UHGV virus genome: UHGV-1363021
Length of the DNA stretch: 40,445 nucleotides
Strand: one strand, 5' to 3'
Origin: a virus
The position numbers and the translations under genes are program-made. Positions 6,408 to 32,561 of this stretch are shown here, piece after piece. The notes beneath the pieces were generated by a model. The model saw only the letters and a list, made by a program, of their open reading frames with translations. It was not told the DNA's origin and searched no databases. How positions within the stretch are numbered: the stretch's first letter is position 1; each line of letters begins with the position of its first letter.

Positions 6408-8151
6408 CGTTAAAATACCTAAAGTGTATGAAAAGCTTTTAAATATACCCAATGATTTAAGAGATGATGCATACAAATACTGTGTCATGGTTCTATCCGG
6501 TGCATACATTACATGTAAGGATACTAGACTTGCCTGTATTCGTCATTTAAAAGACATACACAAGTCAATAGATAGTCCTGAATGGAATTATATCTATAAA
6601 CCTAAACGTGCCAAAAAGGTTATTAAATTCATGGAAACACTACCTGATACAAAAGGTAAAATACACAAATTGACATTGTTTCAAAAGTTCATTGTCGCAA
6701 ATGTCAGAGGTTGGTTCACGAAAGACAGAGATATGCTGAGATTTAGAAAAGCTTTTATCTCAATGTCAAGAAAAGGAGGTAAGTCACTTTTAGTAAGTGG
6801 ACTTGTACTTTATTCTTTTTTATTCGATAGGGAACCAGCAGAAGGCAGACAGATATTTTGCGCAGCTAATGACAAGAAACAAGCAAGCGTAGTATTCAAC
6901 ATGGTAACTAAACAACTTATGCATTTAGTATCAAAAGTACCAGAATTAAAGAAAGACATTAAAAAAGTACGCGAGTTGCTTAATAACTTGCGTGATGACT
7001 CTTTCGTTATGCCATTATCACGTGATACAAGTGCAGTCGATGGTTTCGAACCATTCCTAGCTGTTATTGATGAATACCATGCAGCAAAAACAGATGAAAT
7101 GGTAGAGTTAATTCAATCTGGTCAAGGTAACTTATACCAATCACTTATATTTATCATCAGTACCGCAGGTTTTAACTTAAATTCACCGATGTTTGTAAAT
7201 GAATGGCCTTATGCTAAAGATATTTTAGCTGAAATTTATGATGATCCAGAATACTTTGCGATTATCTATGAACAAGACTCGGAAGATGAATGGCAAGATA
7301 AAACAACATGGGCCAAGTCCAATCCATTAATCAATGAATCAGACGACTTAAAAGAACAAATTGAAGAGTATTTGGAAAAACGCGTAGCAGAGGCTAATAA
7401 AAAAGGATCTATGTTCAAGGTACTTGTTAAAAACTTCAATTATTGGTTACAAGCAAGTACAGAATCTTACTTAGATTTCAATGATTGGAAAAAGAATGAA
7501 ACAGATTTTGATATACATGGGTCTAAAACTTATATCGGCCTAGACTTATCACGTGCTGATGACTTAACCGCAGTGTCGTTCGTTCATCTTAATGAAGATA
7601 ATCAAGAGTATTATGTAACCAGTCATTCGTTTGTGGCTACTAAAGGTGGACTAGATGGCAAGATTGACAGAGACTTCATCGATTATAGACAAATTGCAGA
7701 AAACGGTTATTGTACGATTACCGATTTACAAAGTGGAATTATCAATACTGATCAAGTTTTGAATTATATAGAGGATTATATCGACCAATATAAATTAGAC
7801 GTACAAGCGTTATGTTATGATCCTTACTCAATACATGGTGTTATTGCAGAAATTGAGCGTAGAGATTGGCCTTATGATTTAGTAGAAATCAGACAAGGAC
7901 CACAAACGTTATCTAATCCGATACTAGATTTTAGATTGAAAGTAATTAATGGCGACATTAAACATCATAAAAATCCGTTACTAGATATTGCGATAAAAAA
8001 TGCAGTAGCTAAAGATACTAATGACTCATTGATGATTGAAAAGAAAATGAATAGAGAAAAGATAGATCCGCTCATGTCGACTATATTCGCTTATGTGATG
8101 GCTTGTGAACATGAATGGGATAGTGAAACTTTAATGCCATTGTTCTTATAG
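6394..8151 (+). CDS. terL: terminase large subunit
   Basis: ATPase Walker A region (MSRKGGKS); C-terminal nuclease acidic residues; start 6394 or 6400 overlapping terS stop. Confidence 0.9.
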   Translation: MKMTNVKIPKVYEKLLNIPNDLRDDAYKYCVMVLSGAYITCKDTRLACIRHLKDIHKSIDSPEWNYIYKPKRAKKVIKFMETLPDTKGKIHKLTLFQKFIVANVRGWFTKDRDMLRFRKAFISMSRKGGKSLLVSGLVLYSFLFDREPAEGRQIFCAANDKKQASVVFNMVTKQLMHLVSKVPELKKDIKKVRELLNNLRDDSFVMPLSRDTSAVDGFEPFLAVIDEYHAAKTDEMVELIQSGQGNLYQSLIFIISTAGFNLNSPMFVNEWPYAKDILAEIYDDPEYFAIIYEQDSEDEWQDKTTWAKSNPLINESDDLKEQIEEYLEKRVAEANKKGSMFKVLVKNFNYWLQASTESYLDFNDWKKNETDFDIHGSKTYIGLDLSRADDLTAVSFVHLNEDNQEYYVTSHSFVATKGGLDGKIDRDFIDYRQIAENGYCTITDLQSGIINTDQVLNYIEDYIDQYKLDVQALCYDPYSIHGVIAEIERRDWPYDLVEIRQGPQTLSNPILDFRLKVINGDIKHHKNPLLDIAIKNAVAKDTNDSLMIEKKMNREKIDPLMSTIFAYVMACEHEWDSETLMPLFL

Positions 8152-26712: not shown

Positions 26713-27123
26713 TTGAAAATTAACTGGATTAATCGTTTTAAAAACGGAACAACACTCACAGCTTTAGTTGGTGCAGTATTATTATTTTCTAAACAAGTAA
26801 CCGAAGCATTTGGTATAGATATATCAAGTGAACTTGAAACAATCAGTAGTATTCTGGGAAGTATTATTACAATACTTGTAGCTTTAGGTATTGTTACAAA
26901 CCCTAACACTAAAGGCGTTGCTGATGCTGGTATTGACCTAGAACTAAATAAACCGCGTAATCAAAAAACGCACCCTGTACAGTTTAAAAGTGAGTCAGGG
27001 GCAGTGAAACCTGAAGTTTTCGACACTAACGAATCGTTTACTGATGATTCTGATGAAGAAGAATTCGAATTTAATAATGATGGAGGAGGAGCTCCAGATG
27101 AAAACGCAATCTCAAATCAATAA
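26713..27123 (+). CDS. holin (phage_holin_1 / SPP1-like family)
   Basis: KINWINRFKNGTTLTALVGAVLLF... strongly resembles staphylococcal phage holins; TTG start 9 nt after AAGGAG; immediately upstream of the endolysin. Confidence 0.8.
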   Translation: MKINWINRFKNGTTLTALVGAVLLFSKQVTEAFGIDISSELETISSILGSIITILVALGIVTNPNTKGVADAGIDLELNKPRNQKTHPVQFKSESGAVKPEVFDTNESFTDDSDEEEFEFNNDGGGAPDENAISNQ

Positions 27124-28561
27124 ACGTTTACGAGATTATAAAAACGGTGTAGTAGATAGTCCATACAGAGTTAAACGTTGGACGAGTTATGACGCTTCCT
27201 TTGGTGCTATGGAACCAGGTTGCATTGATAAAGACCGTGCTTATCACGCACAGTGTATGGACTTGGCGATAGATTATGTAATGTGGTTAACTGATAATCA
27301 AACAGAGATGTGGGGCGATGCTAAAAGCTCTATAATAAACAAATTCCCTAAAGGGTGGAAGATTGTAGAAAACAAACCGTCAACGATACCCAAAAAAGGT
27401 TGGATAGCTGTATATACAGCTGGAACCTATTCACGTTATGGGCATATAGGTATAGTATATGATGGTGGTAATACGAACTCCTTCCAAATACTTGAACAAA
27501 ATTGGAATGGCTGGGCTAATAAAAAACCTAGCTTACGATGGGATAATTATTATGGTTTAACACACTTTATAGTTCCACCTATAGCGAAAGAAATAGAAGA
27601 ACCTAAAAAAGATGCAAAATCAGCTCCTAAACAGTCAGTTAAGGAAAATAGTAGCATCAAAGTCAACACTAATCATATAAAAAGTTGGACTATGACTAAG
27701 AGAGGTCGTAAACCTAAAGGTGTAGTCATTCATAACGATGCCGGCACAATGAATTCAAAACAATACTACAACAATCTAGTAAACGCTGATTACAATAGAT
27801 TAGCAAGAGGCATAGCTCACGCATACGCTGATAGAAACGGTATTTGGGAATCTATATCAGAAGATAGAATTGCTTGGCATGTATCAGATGGTGTTCAACC
27901 AGGTTCAGGTAATTTTGAATTCTACGGAATCGAAGTTAACCAATCGATGTATGCCGGAGATAAAGATTTTCTTAAAAATGAACAAGTTGCGCTTAAATTC
28001 GCAGCGCATAAACTTATAAAGTGGGGGTTACCAGCTAACAGAAATACTGTTCGTTTACACAATGAATTTAGTTATACAGCTTGTCCTCATCGTTCTGCTA
28101 AATTACATGCTGGCATTGATCCAACAAAACAAGCATGGACTAAGGCAACACAGCTTGAGTTAAAAGATTACTTTATTAAGCAAATTAGGGCATATATGAA
28201 AGGTAGTACACCTAAAGTTACTACAGTTAAAAACAAACCTGGCAGTGCATCCACTCCAGCTAATAGACGAGATATGAACGGTTGGAAAATCAATAAGTAT
28301 GGAACTTATTATAAATCAGAAATAGCTCACTTTACGCCAAACACTCCTATTAAAACTCATTATGTTGGACCGTTTAGAAGTTGTCCTGTGAGCGGTGTAT
28401 TACAGCCAGGTCAAACAATAAAATATGACACTGTATGTAAACAAGACGGTCACGTTTGGGTGAGTTATACAGCTTATAATGGTAATGACGTTTGGTTAGC
28501 TGTGAGAACATGGAATAAAACAAATGATAGTTTAGGTAAATTGTGGGGTACAATCAATTAA
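27098..28561 (+). CDS. endolysin: CHAP + amidase_2 (N-acetylmuramoyl-L-alanine amidase) + SH3b
   Basis: CHAP Cys/His (AYHAQCMDL...RYGHIGIV); amidase_2/PGRP segment (VIHNDAGT...AWHVSDG); C-terminal SH3_5-like; GGAGGAGGAG RBS. Confidence 0.9.
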   Translation: MKTQSQINKRLRDYKNGVVDSPYRVKRWTSYDASFGAMEPGCIDKDRAYHAQCMDLAIDYVMWLTDNQTEMWGDAKSSIINKFPKGWKIVENKPSTIPKKGWIAVYTAGTYSRYGHIGIVYDGGNTNSFQILEQNWNGWANKKPSLRWDNYYGLTHFIVPPIAKEIEEPKKDAKSAPKQSVKENSSIKVNTNHIKSWTMTKRGRKPKGVVIHNDAGTMNSKQYYNNLVNADYNRLARGIAHAYADRNGIWESISEDRIAWHVSDGVQPGSGNFEFYGIEVNQSMYAGDKDFLKNEQVALKFAAHKLIKWGLPANRNTVRLHNEFSYTACPHRSAKLHAGIDPTKQAWTKATQLELKDYFIKQIRAYMKGSTPKVTTVKNKPGSASTPANRRDMNGWKINKYGTYYKSEIAHFTPNTPIKTHYVGPFRSCPVSGVLQPGQTIKYDTVCKQDGHVWVSYTAYNGNDVWLAVRTWNKTNDSLGKLWGTIN

Positions 28562-28563
28562 TC

Positions 28564-28578
28564 TGTTATAATAAAATT
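28564..28578 (+). promoter_or_regulatory. promoter-like extended -10 motif copy A (TGTTATAATAAAATT)
   Basis: TGnTATAAT directly after the endolysin stop; one of three near-identical 15-mers. Confidence 0.4.
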
Positions 28579-28709
28579 ACCACGTCATTATACAAGGGTA
28601 GTCGCTATGGCTACCTCTCATAAATTACAATTAATTATGTCTATAATATGAAGATATTAGATTGATATTAAAAAAACATAGTTTAACACTACATTGGTTA
28701 CACGGTCTG

Positions 28710-28724
28710 TGCTATAATTAAATT
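28710..28724 (+). promoter_or_regulatory. promoter-like extended -10 motif copy B (TGCTATAATTAAATT)
   Basis: TGnTATAAT; about 45 nt upstream of the terminator at 28769-28797. Confidence 0.45.
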
Positions 28725-28768
28725 ACATACAATTTAATTTTTTATACTCCTTTATAACTTTTTTGCTA

Positions 28769-28797
28769 CCACGCTCTTTGTGAGCGTGGTTATTTTT
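28769..28797 (+). terminator. intrinsic terminator (CCACGCTC-loop-GAGCGTGG plus T-run)
   Basis: Perfect 8-bp stem, 5-nt loop, TTATTTTT tail. Confidence 0.7.
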
Positions 28798-28826
28798 GCG
28801 AACGCCAACAATTTCTGTCGTAACTA

Positions 28827-28841
28827 TGTTATAATTAAATT
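28827..28841 (+). promoter_or_regulatory. promoter-like extended -10 motif copy C (TGTTATAATTAAATT)
   Basis: TGnTATAAT; about 20 nt upstream of the hairpin terminator at 28860-28889. Confidence 0.45.
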
Positions 28842-28859
28842 GCAAGTCATTTCACAGAA

Positions 28860-28889
28860 GGGTAGTCTTAACGGCTATCCTTTTTTTTA
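28860..28889 (+). terminator. intrinsic terminator (GGGTAG-loop-CTATCC plus T8)
   Basis: 6-bp stem (one G-U), 9-nt loop, TTTTTTTT. Confidence 0.6.
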
Positions 28890-29559
28890 TGTAAAAGTTT
28901 TCATAAAACCTCATGCTAGACATAATAAAAACACTCCTAGAACATCCAGTATTGTCAGTACTGGTTATTCAAGAAGTGTTATGCAACTAAGAAAATGGCC
29001 TCTCGGTAACTAAACCGTAAGGCCAAATAACAAAGAAAGGATTATACCTGGAGCTTCAGAACTTCTCCATATCATATGATAAAATATTTTTGGGATATTT
29101 TCAATTATGAAAGAACAAATATATTTGTATTATTAATATTAAGCGTACCATTACTACTTTTATAGGAAGAGAGATCCATTTTTATTATTTAGATAAAAAG
29201 AATAGACGTAGAAAACTTGAGCGAGTATAAATCAAAAATACTTGAATTGATTAGTAGTATTATAACAGGATATCAGATTTTCAAAGAGCAAGCATAAAAC
29301 AATTTGTCATCTCACAACTACGACTTGAAAATATAGAAGCTGATAACATACTGCAAAAAACTATATGAATATGCTACAAAGTATTATAATAAGGATAGAA
29401 TACAATTATAATGAAGACTGGTGTGTTGTTTATGGGGAGCTAGTGAAAAGTACTTGAATGGTATGAATGACTAAAAAGTACAAAAGTCATAATGTTTATG
29501 TTGAAGGCAAATGGAACACTATTTACATAAAATCATATCAAAGAAGTGAAAAGTGAATA

Positions 29560-29739
29560 ATGAGAAAAGAAATAGAGAAGTTATTAAAGAGTGATCTAAC
29601 AAGCAATTGCATAGCAACAGAAACAGGTGTAGAACAAAGTACTATTCATCGACTAAGATTTGGAGAACGCACACTTGATAATTTAGGGTTAAAACAATGT
29701 GAAAAGTTATATGATTTTGCAATTAAGATAAAACTATAA
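29560..29739 (+). CDS. small HTH-like protein (59 aa) in the cargo region, preceded by a 29-aa ORF (29467-29556)
   Basis: Helix-turn-helix-like IATETGVEQSTIHRL; strong terminator 29897-29926 downstream; below ORF-track cutoff. Confidence 0.3.
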   Translation: MRKEIEKLLKSDLTSNCIATETGVEQSTIHRLRFGERTLDNLGLKQCEKLYDFAIKIKL

Positions 29740-29896
29740 CTATTTCGACTTCGAGGTGGCCATTATATTAAAATAACCCTTGCCCTAATTTAATATTAAT
29801 ACTATATTCTAAACCACTTTCTTTATATCTTTAAATGTGCTAATTTATAAGTATACAATTTAACTTTCCTCTCAAATTTTCATGTATTTATTTAAT

Positions 29897-29926
29897 AACC
29901 ACGTTCTTAACAGAACGTGGTTTTTT
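29897..29926 (+). terminator. intrinsic terminator (AACCACGTTC-loop-GAACGTGGTT plus T6)
   Basis: Perfect 10-bp stem, 6-nt loop, TTTTTT. Confidence 0.75.
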
Positions 29927-30138
29927 GATACCATAATTGATACCAATTTAATTTAAAACTAAAAATATTGTAAAATTTTCAGATACCAAAACCGCTTAAA
30001 ATCAACGTTTTTAGTATCTGAAAAATACAGAAAATAGATATTTTACACGAAATGGAAGGTGCAATTGGATAGCCTTCAAAGGCGTGGTTGAGCCATTCTC
30101 TATCACTGAAAACAGCTATTGATACCATTTTGATACCA
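29925..30138. other. attP-like region: four direct TTGATACCA arm-type repeats flanking an 11-bp inverted repeat, abutting the integrase stop
   Basis: TTGATACCA at 29925-33, 29937-45, 30119-27, 30130-38; perfect inverted repeat TTTTCAGATAC (29976-86) / GTATCTGAAAA (30014-24). Confidence 0.5.
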
Positions 30139-30139
30139 T

Positions 30140-31189
30140 TTACTCGTCAAATATTGCTATTGCATCGTGTTTTTTCTGAGTATATAAATGGCTGTAAGTG
30201 CCCATCGTTTCAGTGATTTGAGCATGTCTCATAAGCGATTGTAAAACAAAAATATCTACACCGTTATTTGCAAGGTAAGATGCGTAAGAATGTCTTAACG
30301 TGTGTATGTTATAATTAGGGAAAGCTTGTTGGAATTTCTTCTGAGCATGCTGGTAGTGCTTAGGAGCCATTCCACCAAAAATAAAGTAACTACGTTCATC
30401 AAAGTATTTGTTTGCTGATTTCTCACGTTGATAGCGTTGAGTTAACATTTCATTGATGAACTTAGGTAAGGGAACAATATCTTCTGAGCTATCTGTTTTA
30501 GGTCGTGGATATATTGTTCTATTAGAGATGTCCATTGTTTTACTAATGGATATCTCTTTTTTATATTTATTAAAATCAGTCCAAACTAGCGCCATTGCTT
30601 CTCCGACCCTTAATCCTGTATAAAACATCAAAGTAAACAATTCTCTATAGTCTTGTTCTTTAATATCTTTTACACGTTCTTCAAATTCCTCTCTTAGCAT
30701 ATACTTCGGTCTAGGTTTTACACGTGGAATAGGTTTGATGGATATAGTTGGATCTATACGCAACCCGAAATACTTTTTAGCATAGTTAACAACTACTTTG
30801 AAACCAGACCATATGGTACGTGCTGTATTAGTTGAAGGTACAGTTTCCATTAAGTATTTACGGAACTCTTGGCACTGATTTTGAGTTATTTTATTCATAT
30901 TGATGTGTCCGAATTTATCTTTTATATGTTTATTATATTCGTTTCGTTTACGCTTTTTTGTTTTAGGTCGAAGATCGCTATTTTCCAGGTAATGATTGAA
31001 AACATAGTCAAAAGTTCTAGAGTCACTATAACCTTCGTTAACTTCATTTAAAAATCTTGCTTCTTCACTCTTCGCTTCACGCTTTGTGGCAAATCCTCGC
31101 TTCAATTTACGTTTGTTATTTCCGTAAACATCTTTGTATCGTATAGAGAAATACCACTTTTTTGTACTTTCATCTTTATATACTGGCAT
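30140..31189 (-). CDS. int: tyrosine integrase
   Basis: C-terminal catalytic region HTLRHSYASYL...LMRHAQITET..YSHLY (R-H-R-Y); N-terminal SAM-like domain; 349 aa. Confidence 0.9.
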   Translation of the reverse strand: MPVYKDESTKKWYFSIRYKDVYGNNKRKLKRGFATKREAKSEEARFLNEVNEGYSDSRTFDYVFNHYLENSDLRPKTKKRKRNEYNKHIKDKFGHINMNKITQNQCQEFRKYLMETVPSTNTARTIWSGFKVVVNYAKKYFGLRIDPTISIKPIPRVKPRPKYMLREEFEERVKDIKEQDYRELFTLMFYTGLRVGEAMALVWTDFNKYKKEISISKTMDISNRTIYPRPKTDSSEDIVPLPKFINEMLTQRYQREKSANKYFDERSYFIFGGMAPKHYQHAQKKFQQAFPNYNIHTLRHSYASYLANNGVDIFVLQSLMRHAQITETMGTYSHLYTQKKHDAIAIFDE

Positions 31190-31403: not shown

Positions 31404-32561
31404 TTAGTTAGATTTTAAAAATTCTTTATCAATAATTTCATTAGTAATTCTTTCCATATGTTCTTTAGTCATATCCTTGTTTTCACCACTTTGCATACCA
31501 TGTTCATTTGCTATTTTATCGTTATATTTGTCTAGTGGGTAAACAGTAAAATCATATCTAGAATCTTTATTGCCTGGTATTCTTTCTCTATAGAAATTTA
31601 CTAGGGATTTCCAATGAACATTTTTAATTACAATTTTTTGCCCTTTTTTTGTTATATCAAAATTTATGCTACCACAAAGATTATTACTTTCATTACCAGT
31701 ATTTTGACCATTTAAAAAATTACCTAATGAGTAAACTACAAGTGTTTTGTGATTTTTTATGCCTTTTACCCATTTTACCGGTTGAATTACATGGGGATGC
31801 ATACCTATTACGGCATCGACATTTGAATTTGCGAATACTTTAGCATATCTTTCTTGCTTTTTATTTGGATAATGATGACTCTCTTGTCCCCAATGAGTTG
31901 AAACGATAACAGCATCACTATTTTTTTTAGCGTATTTGACGTCTCGCTTTATTTTATTTTCATTTAAATAATTAATTTGATATTTATTTTCTGGTTTAAG
32001 TCCATTAGTACCAAATGTATAATTAAGTATTGCTATCTTTATTCCATTTTTATTTATAATTTGAAGTTTCTCATTATCTTTTTTAGATTTGTATACACCA
32101 GTGAACATAACTCCTTTTTCTTTATACTTTTCCCATAGATTAACTCTATGATTAACGCCATGTGTACCTTTGTCGAGAGCATGATTATTTGATCCGTTAA
32201 TTAAATTAAATCCTGATTCAACCAAATATTTCGACAAATCGCTAGGAGTATTAAACCTTTTAAAACCTGAATAAGGTATATCATCCCCTCCCATTGGGGA
32301 CTCTTGGTTGATGTAAGCAATATCAAATTTCTTTATATAAGGTTTAATGTTTTTATACATTGGTGAAAAATCATAGTCATTATGACGAGTTTTTGCATCG
32401 CTATATACAACTGGATGAATTAAATTATCTCCAACTGCAACAAAAGAAACTTTTTCATGATTAAAGTGGGTGTCAATTTCAGCAAATATTAAAGTTATAA
32501 CTGCTAATAGGCTAAAAAAAATTATAGCTATTATTTTTTTCAATTTACATACCTTCTTCAT
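31404..32561 (-). CDS. CapA/PGA_cap-family membrane-anchored metallophosphatase-like protein, lysogeny-region moron
   Basis: N-terminal TM anchor; metallophosphatase-like motifs (VAVGDNLIHP, INGSNNHALDKG, GMHPHV) and overall CapA/PgsA (PF09587-type) architecture; own terminator. Confidence 0.65.
   Translation of the reverse strand: MKKVCKLKKIIAIIFFSLLAVITLIFAEIDTHFNHEKVSFVAVGDNLIHPVVYSDAKTRHNDYDFSPMYKNIKPYIKKFDIAYINQESPMGGDDIPYSGFKRFNTPSDLSKYLVESGFNLINGSNNHALDKGTHGVNHRVNLWEKYKEKGVMFTGVYKSKKDNEKLQIINKNGIKIAILNYTFGTNGLKPENKYQINYLNENKIKRDVKYAKKNSDAVIVSTHWGQESHHYPNKKQERYAKVFANSNVDAVIGMHPHVIQPVKWVKGIKNHKTLVVYSLGNFLNGQNTGNESNNLCGSINFDITKKGQKIVIKNVHWKSLVNFYRERIPGNKDSRYDFTVYPLDKYNDKIANEHGMQSGENKDMTKEHMERITNEIIDKEFLKSN

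Follow-up and report, generated by a model that had tools for sequence, protein, structure and literature searches.

Directly downstream of its endolysin gene, the staphylococcal phage genome UHGV-1363021 carries a cluster of three short units (28564-28892) that we believe to be small-RNA (sRNA) genes. The stretch analysed here, referred to throughout as the window, is 40,445 bp long and amounts to a complete or near-complete genome of a temperate siphophage of the Staphylococcus epidermidis group, and the cluster occupies the first 330 bp 3' of the endolysin stop codon. A cluster of three sRNA cassettes is the most economical reading of this region, one that would make it the counterpart, in phages of coagulase-negative staphylococci (CoNS), of the srn_9342-srn_9346 hotspot of the Staphylococcus aureus phage phiNM2 and of SprX/SprY in phi12. 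We put at about 65%, on the strength of sequence analysis, the probability that at least two of the three units are transcribed as discrete RNAs from the promoters described below, and we hold any particular mode of action with considerably less confidence. Elements of this kind are known, and the families found in the window are new and undescribed. A first-pass annotation of this DNA had proposed tandem promoter-to-terminator sRNA units in the cargo region, and all of the sequence-level tests that we ran support that proposal.

The repeated motif and its promoters

The three near-identical motifs lie on the plus strand at 28564-78, 28710-24 and 28827-41, just where the first-pass annotation had seen them. 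With at most one mismatch allowed, TGYTATAATWAAATT has exactly these three matches in the 40,445 bp, all on the plus strand and all within 280 bp, against an expectation of 0.24 (the mean of dinucleotide shuffles), and none of 100 shuffled sequences reached three matches, which upholds the earlier contention that a triplicated 15-mer exceeds what AT-richness alone would give. The core TGNTATAAT occurs 10 times on the two strands against 4.8 expected; its plus-strand copies number four genome-wide, three of them inside the same 280-bp stretch.

Each 15-mer would provide an extended -10 element (TGnTATAAT) and an AT-rich discriminator of 6 nt, with a purine as the first transcribed base (+1), as expected of a promoter for the host housekeeping sigma factor. 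Promoter 1 (28564-28578) begins 2 nt past the endolysin stop codon (28559-61) and reads TGtTATAAT, with TATAAT at 28567-72, followed by the AT-rich discriminator AAAATT and a predicted start at A28579. Promoter 2 (28710-28724) combines TGcTATAAT with TAAATT, and promoter 3 (28827-28841) TGtTATAAT with TAAATT, for predicted starts at A28725 and G28842, respectively, so that all three putative starts are purines 7 nt past TATAAT. A consensus promoter scan found no -35 hexamer at these promoters, and the 29-bp spacer upstream of unit 3 (28798-28826, plus strand) likewise has no -35-like hexamer at 16-18 bp spacing. The same spacer precedes unit 3, in conserved form, in L001, L107, L126, L129 and L148 (L-numbers are labels of the related loci compared here).

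Conservation within the motif was followed in an alignment, A1, of 32 distinct copies of the unit 1/3 family, the window included, and in 15 distinct homologues of unit 2. Columns T12 and G13 of A1 are identical in every copy, column 14, the N of the consensus, is T, A or G, the hexamer is TATAAT save in one TAAAAT lineage, a purine stands 7 nt past it, and the 11 columns upstream of the motif are unconserved. In the unit 2 homologues the first triplet is TGC or TGT and the hexamer TATAAT, TACAAT or TAAAAT. Across the 32 unit 1/3 and 15 unit 2 copies, then, TG, -12T, -11A and -7T never vary, whereas the N does. Base by base, this pattern looks like the signature of an extended -10 promoter that works independently of a -35 element, and it would be hard to obtain from a passive 3' untranslated region (UTR), from a dyad operator or from AT-richness.

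Predicted transcripts

Folds and a consensus scan agree with the first-pass annotation in placing a stable hairpin after each motif. Those of units 2 and 3 are canonical intrinsic terminators, with a stem-loop and a U-tract, and would end transcripts about 73 and 50 nt downstream of the respective starts. The predicted RNA2 (28725-28797, plus strand, ~73 nt) has a 43-nt unstructured 5' part followed by terminator 2 (28768-28790 plus UAUUUUU; -16.5 kcal/mol, z = -5.0). Its 5' part holds ACUCCUUU (28746-53), which resembles an anti-Shine-Dalgarno sequence; ACUCCUUUAUAA is kept in the 15 distinct homologues, with ACUUCUUU in three of these. The terminator 2 stem shows a G-C to A-U compensation (CCACGCUC/GAGCGUGG versus CCACAUUC/GAGUGUGG), and directly past the T-run the homologues have at least five different downstream flanks. 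The predicted RNA3 (28842-28892, plus strand, ~50 nt) consists of the leader GCAAGUCAUUUCAC, a 12-bp hairpin and a U-run, the latter two forming terminator 3 (28856-28884 plus the U-run; -14.3 kcal/mol, z = -4.2), and has homologues in StB20-like, in L107/L148, in L126 and in L129-133.

Unit 1 requires a closer look. The earlier annotation had described the likeness of the three 15-mers; units 1 and 3 remain alike well past the motif, both in their leader (GTCATT..ACA) and in their hairpin (AAGGGTAGTC..GGCTAYC), and are therefore paralogues of one ~55-bp unit. The RNA1 leader, ACCACGUCAUUAUACAA (28579-28595, plus strand), is a single-stranded 5' part and candidate seed, unpaired in both the minimum-free-energy and the centroid folds; in A1 it is conserved with the limited variants CGUCAUUAUAC, CGACAUUACAC and CGUAAUCAUAC. 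Hairpin 1 follows (28596-28616, plus strand; GGGUAGUC-GCUAU-GGCUACC, 8 bp, -11 kcal/mol, z = -2.5), and it fails the intrinsic-terminator test, in that the stem is present and no U-tract follows it, the next bases being UCUCAUAAAUU. In this phage hairpin 1 thus reads as a decayed terminator whose U-tract has been lost. A U-tract follows the hairpin in 21 of the 32 A1 copies, and the 11 copies that lack it, the window among them, all run on into a 93-bp connector and unit 2.

The connector (28617-28709, plus strand) lies between hairpin 1 and promoter 2 and accompanies units 1 and 2, at 91-95% identity, in CNPH82, CNPx, phiIPLA7, S-CoN_Ph18 and StB20-like; its open reading frames (ORFs) have 4-5 codons only. 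It would form part of a long RNA1 isoform, for which a fold of the 221-nt read-through RNA gives z = -2.5. RNA1 is more likely to be a transcript of ~219 nt (28579 to ~28797) that reads through to terminator 2, and RNA1 and RNA2 would then be nested, with a common 3' end; a ~38-nt form, should hairpin 1 halt RNA polymerase, is possible as a minor species. The 50-70 nt forecast by the first-pass annotation is thus approached by RNA2 and RNA3 and fails for unit 1, which has no terminator of its own.

Pairing in the unit 1/3 stem is well maintained. Its positions are paired in 98.6% of 288 alignment cells, against 29-59% for controls with the 3' strand shifted, and its variation is made up of U-A/U-G alternation at two pairs and a U-G/U-A/G-C change at one. 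The pairing is kept by G-U pairs and compensatory changes.

The two strands of this stem differ in another respect. The 5' strand, AGGGUAG (A1 columns 46-52), is nearly invariant and the 3' strand drifts by way of wobble pairs; G44-G46, T47 and G49 are identical in 32/32 copies, and the A positions on either side reach at least 90% conservation. This constancy suggests a sequence constraint beyond pairing.

Coding potential and other readings

Neither strand of 28562-28895 offers a plausible ORF. The minus strand has one ORF of at least 25 aa, setting aside two that overlap only the first bases from within the endolysin gene; it encodes 40 aa, is hydrophilic, starts with TTG and lacks a Shine-Dalgarno sequence. 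A 26-aa ORF annotated at the equivalent position in S-CoN_Ph18 merely overlaps the end of the endolysin gene. These results bear on a possible type I toxin-antitoxin-like or other cis-antisense module, a reading with some precedent in that the phiNM2 cluster has two antisense RNAs, one of them peptide-coding, and the earlier annotation had mentioned toxin modules. A toxin-antitoxin test found no small hydrophobic peptide ORF on either strand of 28562-28895, however, and the minus strand there has no terminator and a single weak promoter match (9 of 12), in addition to the unpromising 40-aa ORF. The idea of a toxin module finds no support within this stretch, and we consider a module of this kind highly improbable.

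Several other readings were tried and dropped. A CRISPR-like or mini-array organization is at odds with the irregular spacing and lengths of the units, which are 146 and 117 bp apart in the window and show values of 80-200 bp in L155. To our knowledge, the units do not resemble the S. epidermidis type III-A repeat. A likeness of ACAAGGGUAG... and of the RNA2 segment ACUCCUUU to the 3' end of 16S rRNA involves many gaps and is lost in other members of the family (ACUAGGG, UUAAGGG). Pairing of GUCAUU, present in the leaders, with AAUGAC in the 5'-UTR hairpin of a small ORF downstream in relatives extends over 5-9 nt and is unconserved, and the UTR that bears AAUGAC is deleted in the window, a further reason for dropping it.

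We also scanned 28000-30400 against Rfam 15 (E<=10). The only strong match is a sub-threshold S808 match in the endolysin ORF, and weak microRNA, sRNA and snoRNA matches lie further downstream. The SprC, SprD, DUF3800-I and GOLLD families have no covariance match over 28562-28895.

Distribution and cassette boundaries

A blastn search with the 339-bp region against 50,697 phage records found it in staphylococcal phages only, bar one record labelled as a Streptococcus phage, and returned no S. aureus phage. The whole three-unit region is present in StB20-like; units 1 and 2 together (28564-28797) in CNPH82, CNPx, phiIPLA7, IME1348_01 and S-CoN phages; unit 1 alone (28564-28615) in BE01, 48, BE21, phiIPLA5 and others; and unit 2 alone (28708-28797) in PH15 and E72, where homology runs from the TG onward behind unrelated ORFs. 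Every shared block starts at the TG of the motif and stops at a T-run. As these combinations show (1 alone, 2 alone, 1+2 and 1+2+3), the units move independently of one another. The first-pass annotation had staked its proposal on conservation of motif and hairpins in related phages, and both are clearly conserved there.

A second sample of relatives was chosen by endolysin protein alone. Unit 1 stands directly past the stop codon in 28/28 loci that have an endolysin of at least 86% identity and downstream sequence present, and in other settings its upstream neighbour is an unrelated gene, such as cn31 in CNPH82, ph29 in PH15 and those of several IMG/VR contexts. The upstream sequences include at least five unrelated ones, and behind each of them homology sets in precisely at the TG. 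The arrays of relatives contain other short units as well, each after a junction of the form T-run-A-TGTTATAAT: four units in a row in L155; unit 1, unit D and unit E in L113; unit 1, unit D and more in L090 and L091; and unit 1, unit E, unit D, ORFs and unit 2 in PH15.

Homology breakpoints that coincide with the motif and with T-runs are also what recombination at these points would predict, which raises an alternative in which the 15-mer acts as a DNA-level site, be it an operator for a phage regulator or a recombination linker, instead of or besides acting as a promoter. Unit 2 gives this idea some substance: a perfect 9-bp palindrome, AATTAAATT (28716-24) and AATTTAATT (28731-39), spans its -10 and +1, is largely kept among unit 2 homologues and may serve as an operator or, in read-through RNA1, form a hairpin. 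Units 1 and 3, however, have no comparable palindrome, and conservation tracks the extended -10 consensus, free N included, rather than the dyad. The same units, with the same boundaries, occur in a tyrosine-integrase phage (the window) and in a large-serine-recombinase phage (CNPH82, which shares units 1 and 2), and the window has four separate copies of TTGATACCA beside int; since both integrase types carry the units and separate TTGATACCA repeats are present, the 15-mers are not integrase arm sites. We regard a DNA-level explanation as quite unlikely overall, and note that a regulatory or recombinational role of the motif could coexist with promoter function.

Some database records in which the units occur carry unexpected host names. 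Under L124, L125 and L126, the same phage, its units identical and its endolysin 100% identical, occurs as 41.2-kb contigs in assemblies labelled Nocardioides sp. NPDC127503 and Micromonospora sp. NPDC050417, and a 97% relative sits in an 'Anaerococcus' metagenome-assembled genome; contamination or mis-binning is almost certainly responsible. A unit-1-type copy follows a T-run at 1490-1570 of L164 (PQ843100.1, Streptococcus phage vB_SagS-GXN2), and H80 (OR842880.1, Xanthomonas phage SU1) has matches to units D and E. The host labels of these two records look doubtful.

Relation to the phiNM2 cluster

The 3' end of the phiNM2 prophage has been described as an sRNA 'hotspot', srn_9342-srn_9346, whose members were mapped by Northern blots, rapid amplification of cDNA ends (RACE) and terminator exonuclease (TEX) treatment (Bronsard et al. 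2017, PMC5496865). The plus strand gives rise to srn_9342, with two 3' ends, srn_9344 (131 nt) and srn_9345 (314 nt), all of them independent primary transcripts, and the minus strand to the two antisense RNAs already mentioned (PMC5496865). The long isoform of srn_9342 is reported to depend on SigB (preprint 10.1101/2024.10.25.620293).

In phiNM2 (L165), the same T-run-A-TGTTATAAT junctions are found 3' of the amidase gene. Newman coordinates convert to phiNM2 coordinates with a single offset, by subtraction of 1,140,384, and the mapped starts of srn_9344 and srn_9345 then fall at L165 1141 and 1292, which is 7 and 6 nt past two TGTTATAAT hexamers. The distance between the two starts is 151 nt as mapped versus 152 nt as predicted, and 4/4 mapped 3' ends coincide with predicted terminators. 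The srn_9342 start, at L165 869, lies inside the amidase ORF behind a SigB-like -10, GGGTAGGAT, in agreement with the reported SigB dependence of the long isoform. Moreover, unit E of the CoNS phages is homologous in sequence to srn_9344 and has the same promoter, the two sharing the invariant core GAGG.CUU.CUUGCG...AG.AGU.AG.A.CUGAC. Unit E is not in the window, and its homology to srn_9344 places at least one cassette from the unit 1 arrays in an experimentally verified sRNA family.

Two Rfam matches in phiNM2 deserve mention alongside this. DUF3800-I (RF02969) matches the 3' part of srn_9345, at L165 1444-1560 (53.5 bits, gathering score 44.2). S808 matches L165 528-782, inside the amidase ORF, and not srn_9345, with which it was equated in Table 5 of PMC5496865; the sub-threshold S808 match in the window, at 28136-28386, likewise falls in endolysin coding sequence.

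The phiNM2 data bear on two further explanations. According to the first, the hairpins are stacked terminators of the late operon, and the 15-mers go unused as promoters, having been kept within an inherited and recombined 3'-UTR block. The cluster does lie directly past the endolysin stop codon in an AT-rich region, no -35 element was found, and the genome paper on phiIPLA5 and phiIPLA7 lists hairpins 1 and 2 as terminators and predicts no promoter there. A stack of terminators, however, does not lead one to expect that TG and TATAAT stay constant next to a variable N and variable upstream sequence, that homology starts exactly at the TG behind at least five unrelated sequences, or that the same junction precedes every unit of arrays far from operon ends, and in phiNM2 TEX-resistant 5' ends lie ~7 nt past the same motif. 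We judge this explanation unlikely, and rank it first among the alternatives.

The second would make the units cis-acting attenuators, in which a constitutive promoter and a conditional terminator gate the cargo genes and antitermination releases read-through. A promoter, short leader and terminator in succession is the geometry of the units, and it is the geometry that attenuators and lambda pR'-tR' share; cargo ORFs lie downstream in many relatives, and unit 1 of the window would run into the next unit. Yet the terminators of the arrays adjoin the next promoter and not an ORF, the cargo genes of relatives are served by separate promoters and 5' UTRs, and the phiNM2 equivalents are discrete, independently started RNAs on Northern blots. 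Nor did an antiterminator fold emerge when the endolysin 3' end was included (z = -1.4, with the same hairpin remaining). Gating of this kind is, in our view, improbable.

Genomic context

The nearest annotated relatives of the phage are StB20-like, the S-CoN_Ph18-24 phages, CNPH82, CNPx and phiIPLA7. The gene order runs from holin and endolysin through a 1.58-kb non-coding or decayed cargo region to attP and the integrase gene. The endolysin (27044-28561, plus strand) has CHAP, Amidase_2 and SH3_5 domains, and the tyrosine integrase (30140-31189, minus strand) an Arm-DNA-binding domain. With attP and int at ~29920-31189, the three units occupy the expected place between lysin and attP. The four TTGATACCA direct repeats (29925-29933, 29937-29945, 30119-30127 and 30130-30138) bracket ~170 bp adjoining the integrase stop codon and are probably the arm-type sites of attP, with the core between them.

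Decayed copies of two small membrane-protein genes occupy 28913-29165: the MLDIIKTLLEHPVL... gene is cut to 25 aa and the MTGQMYLSLFILSLPLLLFIGRK... homologue is frameshifted. Both genes are intact in relatives such as L144 and L150, where they have their own promoter and a 5'-UTR hairpin; in the window, the unit 3 terminator is joined straight to the first ATG. On the other side, adjoining the integrase gene, a minus-strand gene at 31404-32561 encodes a 385-aa PGA_cap protein (CapA-like, of the poly-gamma-glutamate capsule synthesis family), unusual cargo for a staphylococcal phage.

Discussion

Taken as sRNA genes, the three units would be independent, same-strand, non-coding transcription units placed at the end of the late (lysis) operon and before attP. 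Promoters of this type are predicted to need no phage activator, so that lysogens and infected cells alike would be expected to make the RNAs, as with 'moron' genes. The RNAs would act by base-pairing through their unstructured 5' segments, that is, the leaders of RNA1 and RNA3 and ACUCCUUU of RNA2, and the ACUCCUUUAUAA/ACUCCUUU segment of RNA2, to judge from known anti-Shine-Dalgarno sRNAs, could mask the ribosome-binding sites of host mRNAs. In a more specific scheme, units 1 and 3 and their GGGUAGGCAC-type relatives would make up a family of ~45-nt RNAs, each with a fixed hairpin scaffold (5' strand AGGGUAG, invariant) as a protein handle and a short, diversifying 5' leader that confers specificity, serving phage-phage exclusion or anti-defence and not the regulation of host genes in the usual sense. 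One member of this family stands behind the endolysin of essentially every sampled S. epidermidis-group temperate phage. We offer this scheme as a long shot.

A number of observations weigh against the interpretation of the cluster as sRNA genes. Literature searches turned up no published transcript data for this phage or its close relatives, and the phiIPLA5/phiIPLA7 annotation, as noted, points to terminators alone. Terminators 1 and 2 are in any case needed to end the late operon. Unit 1 is without a terminator and the cargo downstream is visibly decaying, such that some of the units could be relics, and a length of 38-50 nt is unusually small for an sRNA. Nothing in the Rfam 15 scan overlaps 28562-28895, and the leaders of RNA1 and RNA3 find no complement in the phage genome, at three or fewer mismatches in 17-18 nt, besides the units themselves. 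As for phiNM2, the transcribed parts of the window units have no similarity to srn_9342, srn_9344 or srn_9345, the junctions alone being matched, and the Newman offset was taken from internal consistency and not from the Newman record.

The S. epidermidis-group temperate phages CNPH82, CNPx and PH15 are widely used as models for type III CRISPR immunity and for transduction, and the post-lysis stretch of such phages is currently annotated as empty or as 'hypothetical protein'. Our analysis suggests that it is instead a shuffling depot of small-RNA genes, built on a simple promoter-terminator grammar held in common with S. aureus phages. Srn_9342 acts on hemQ and RNAIII (preprint 10.1101/2024.10.25.620293), SprY acts on RNAIII, and both alter S. 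aureus physiology and virulence. Should the units be expressed, skin staphylococci that become lysogens would be reprogrammed at the post-transcriptional level, and the junction motif would be a cheap aid for annotating phage sRNA genes. The gain is incremental and involves no new principle; a junction grammar shared across staphylococcal phages is nonetheless useful.

Among known systems, several occupy comparable ground. DUF3800-I and GOLLD (RF02032) are found in the same post-lysis niche in other staphylococcal phages; neither has a match in the window, whose units are far smaller and have little structure besides the terminator. One staphylococcal prophage contig brings such elements together: in L090, units 1 and D are followed after ~0.5 kb by a full-length GOLLD RNA (7183-7598, minus strand; 255 bits against a gathering score of 150) and then by a SprC-family match. 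Two related contigs have SprC-family matches ~1.3-1.5 kb past unit 1, and the match in L113 lies beyond the apparent prophage end.

Type I 3'-UTR-derived sRNAs, exemplified by DapZ and MicL, are transcribed from a separate promoter located towards the 3' end of a coding gene and share the terminator of its mRNA. Unit 1, starting 2 nt past the endolysin stop, is similar to these and to Srn_9342-like 3'-UTR-derived sRNAs, and in most relatives it would use the predicted terminator of the late mRNA in the same way; its promoter, unlike theirs, lies outside the ORF. A second point of comparison is provided by SprX2 and SprY of phi12, which act on host RNAs and of which sprY lies ~50 bp upstream of sprX2, and by the SprC/SprD pair. 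These RNAs, borne by prophages and islands of S. aureus, are like the window units in being short, non-coding, carried by temperate staphylococcal phages and tandem, each with its own promoter and Rho-independent terminator (both predicted in the window), and they have no match to the window in sequence or in structure (Rfam, E<=10).

The phiNM2 cluster comes closest. Its RNAs have been mapped experimentally, whereas the window units are known from sequence alone; the window has no evident antisense partners or peptide ORF, its units are predicted to be shorter (50-73 nt, against 131-314 nt in phiNM2), and its promoter 1 lies past the stop codon and looks to be of the sigma-A type, in contrast to the SigB promoter of srn_9342 inside the amidase ORF. 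At the same time, both clusters lie between a lysin or amidase gene and attP, and both consist of contiguous same-strand units, each with its own start (predicted in the window) and an intrinsic terminator. In phiNM2, the first unit overlaps the 3' end or UTR of the lysin gene and comes in short and long isoforms, just as is predicted for RNA1.

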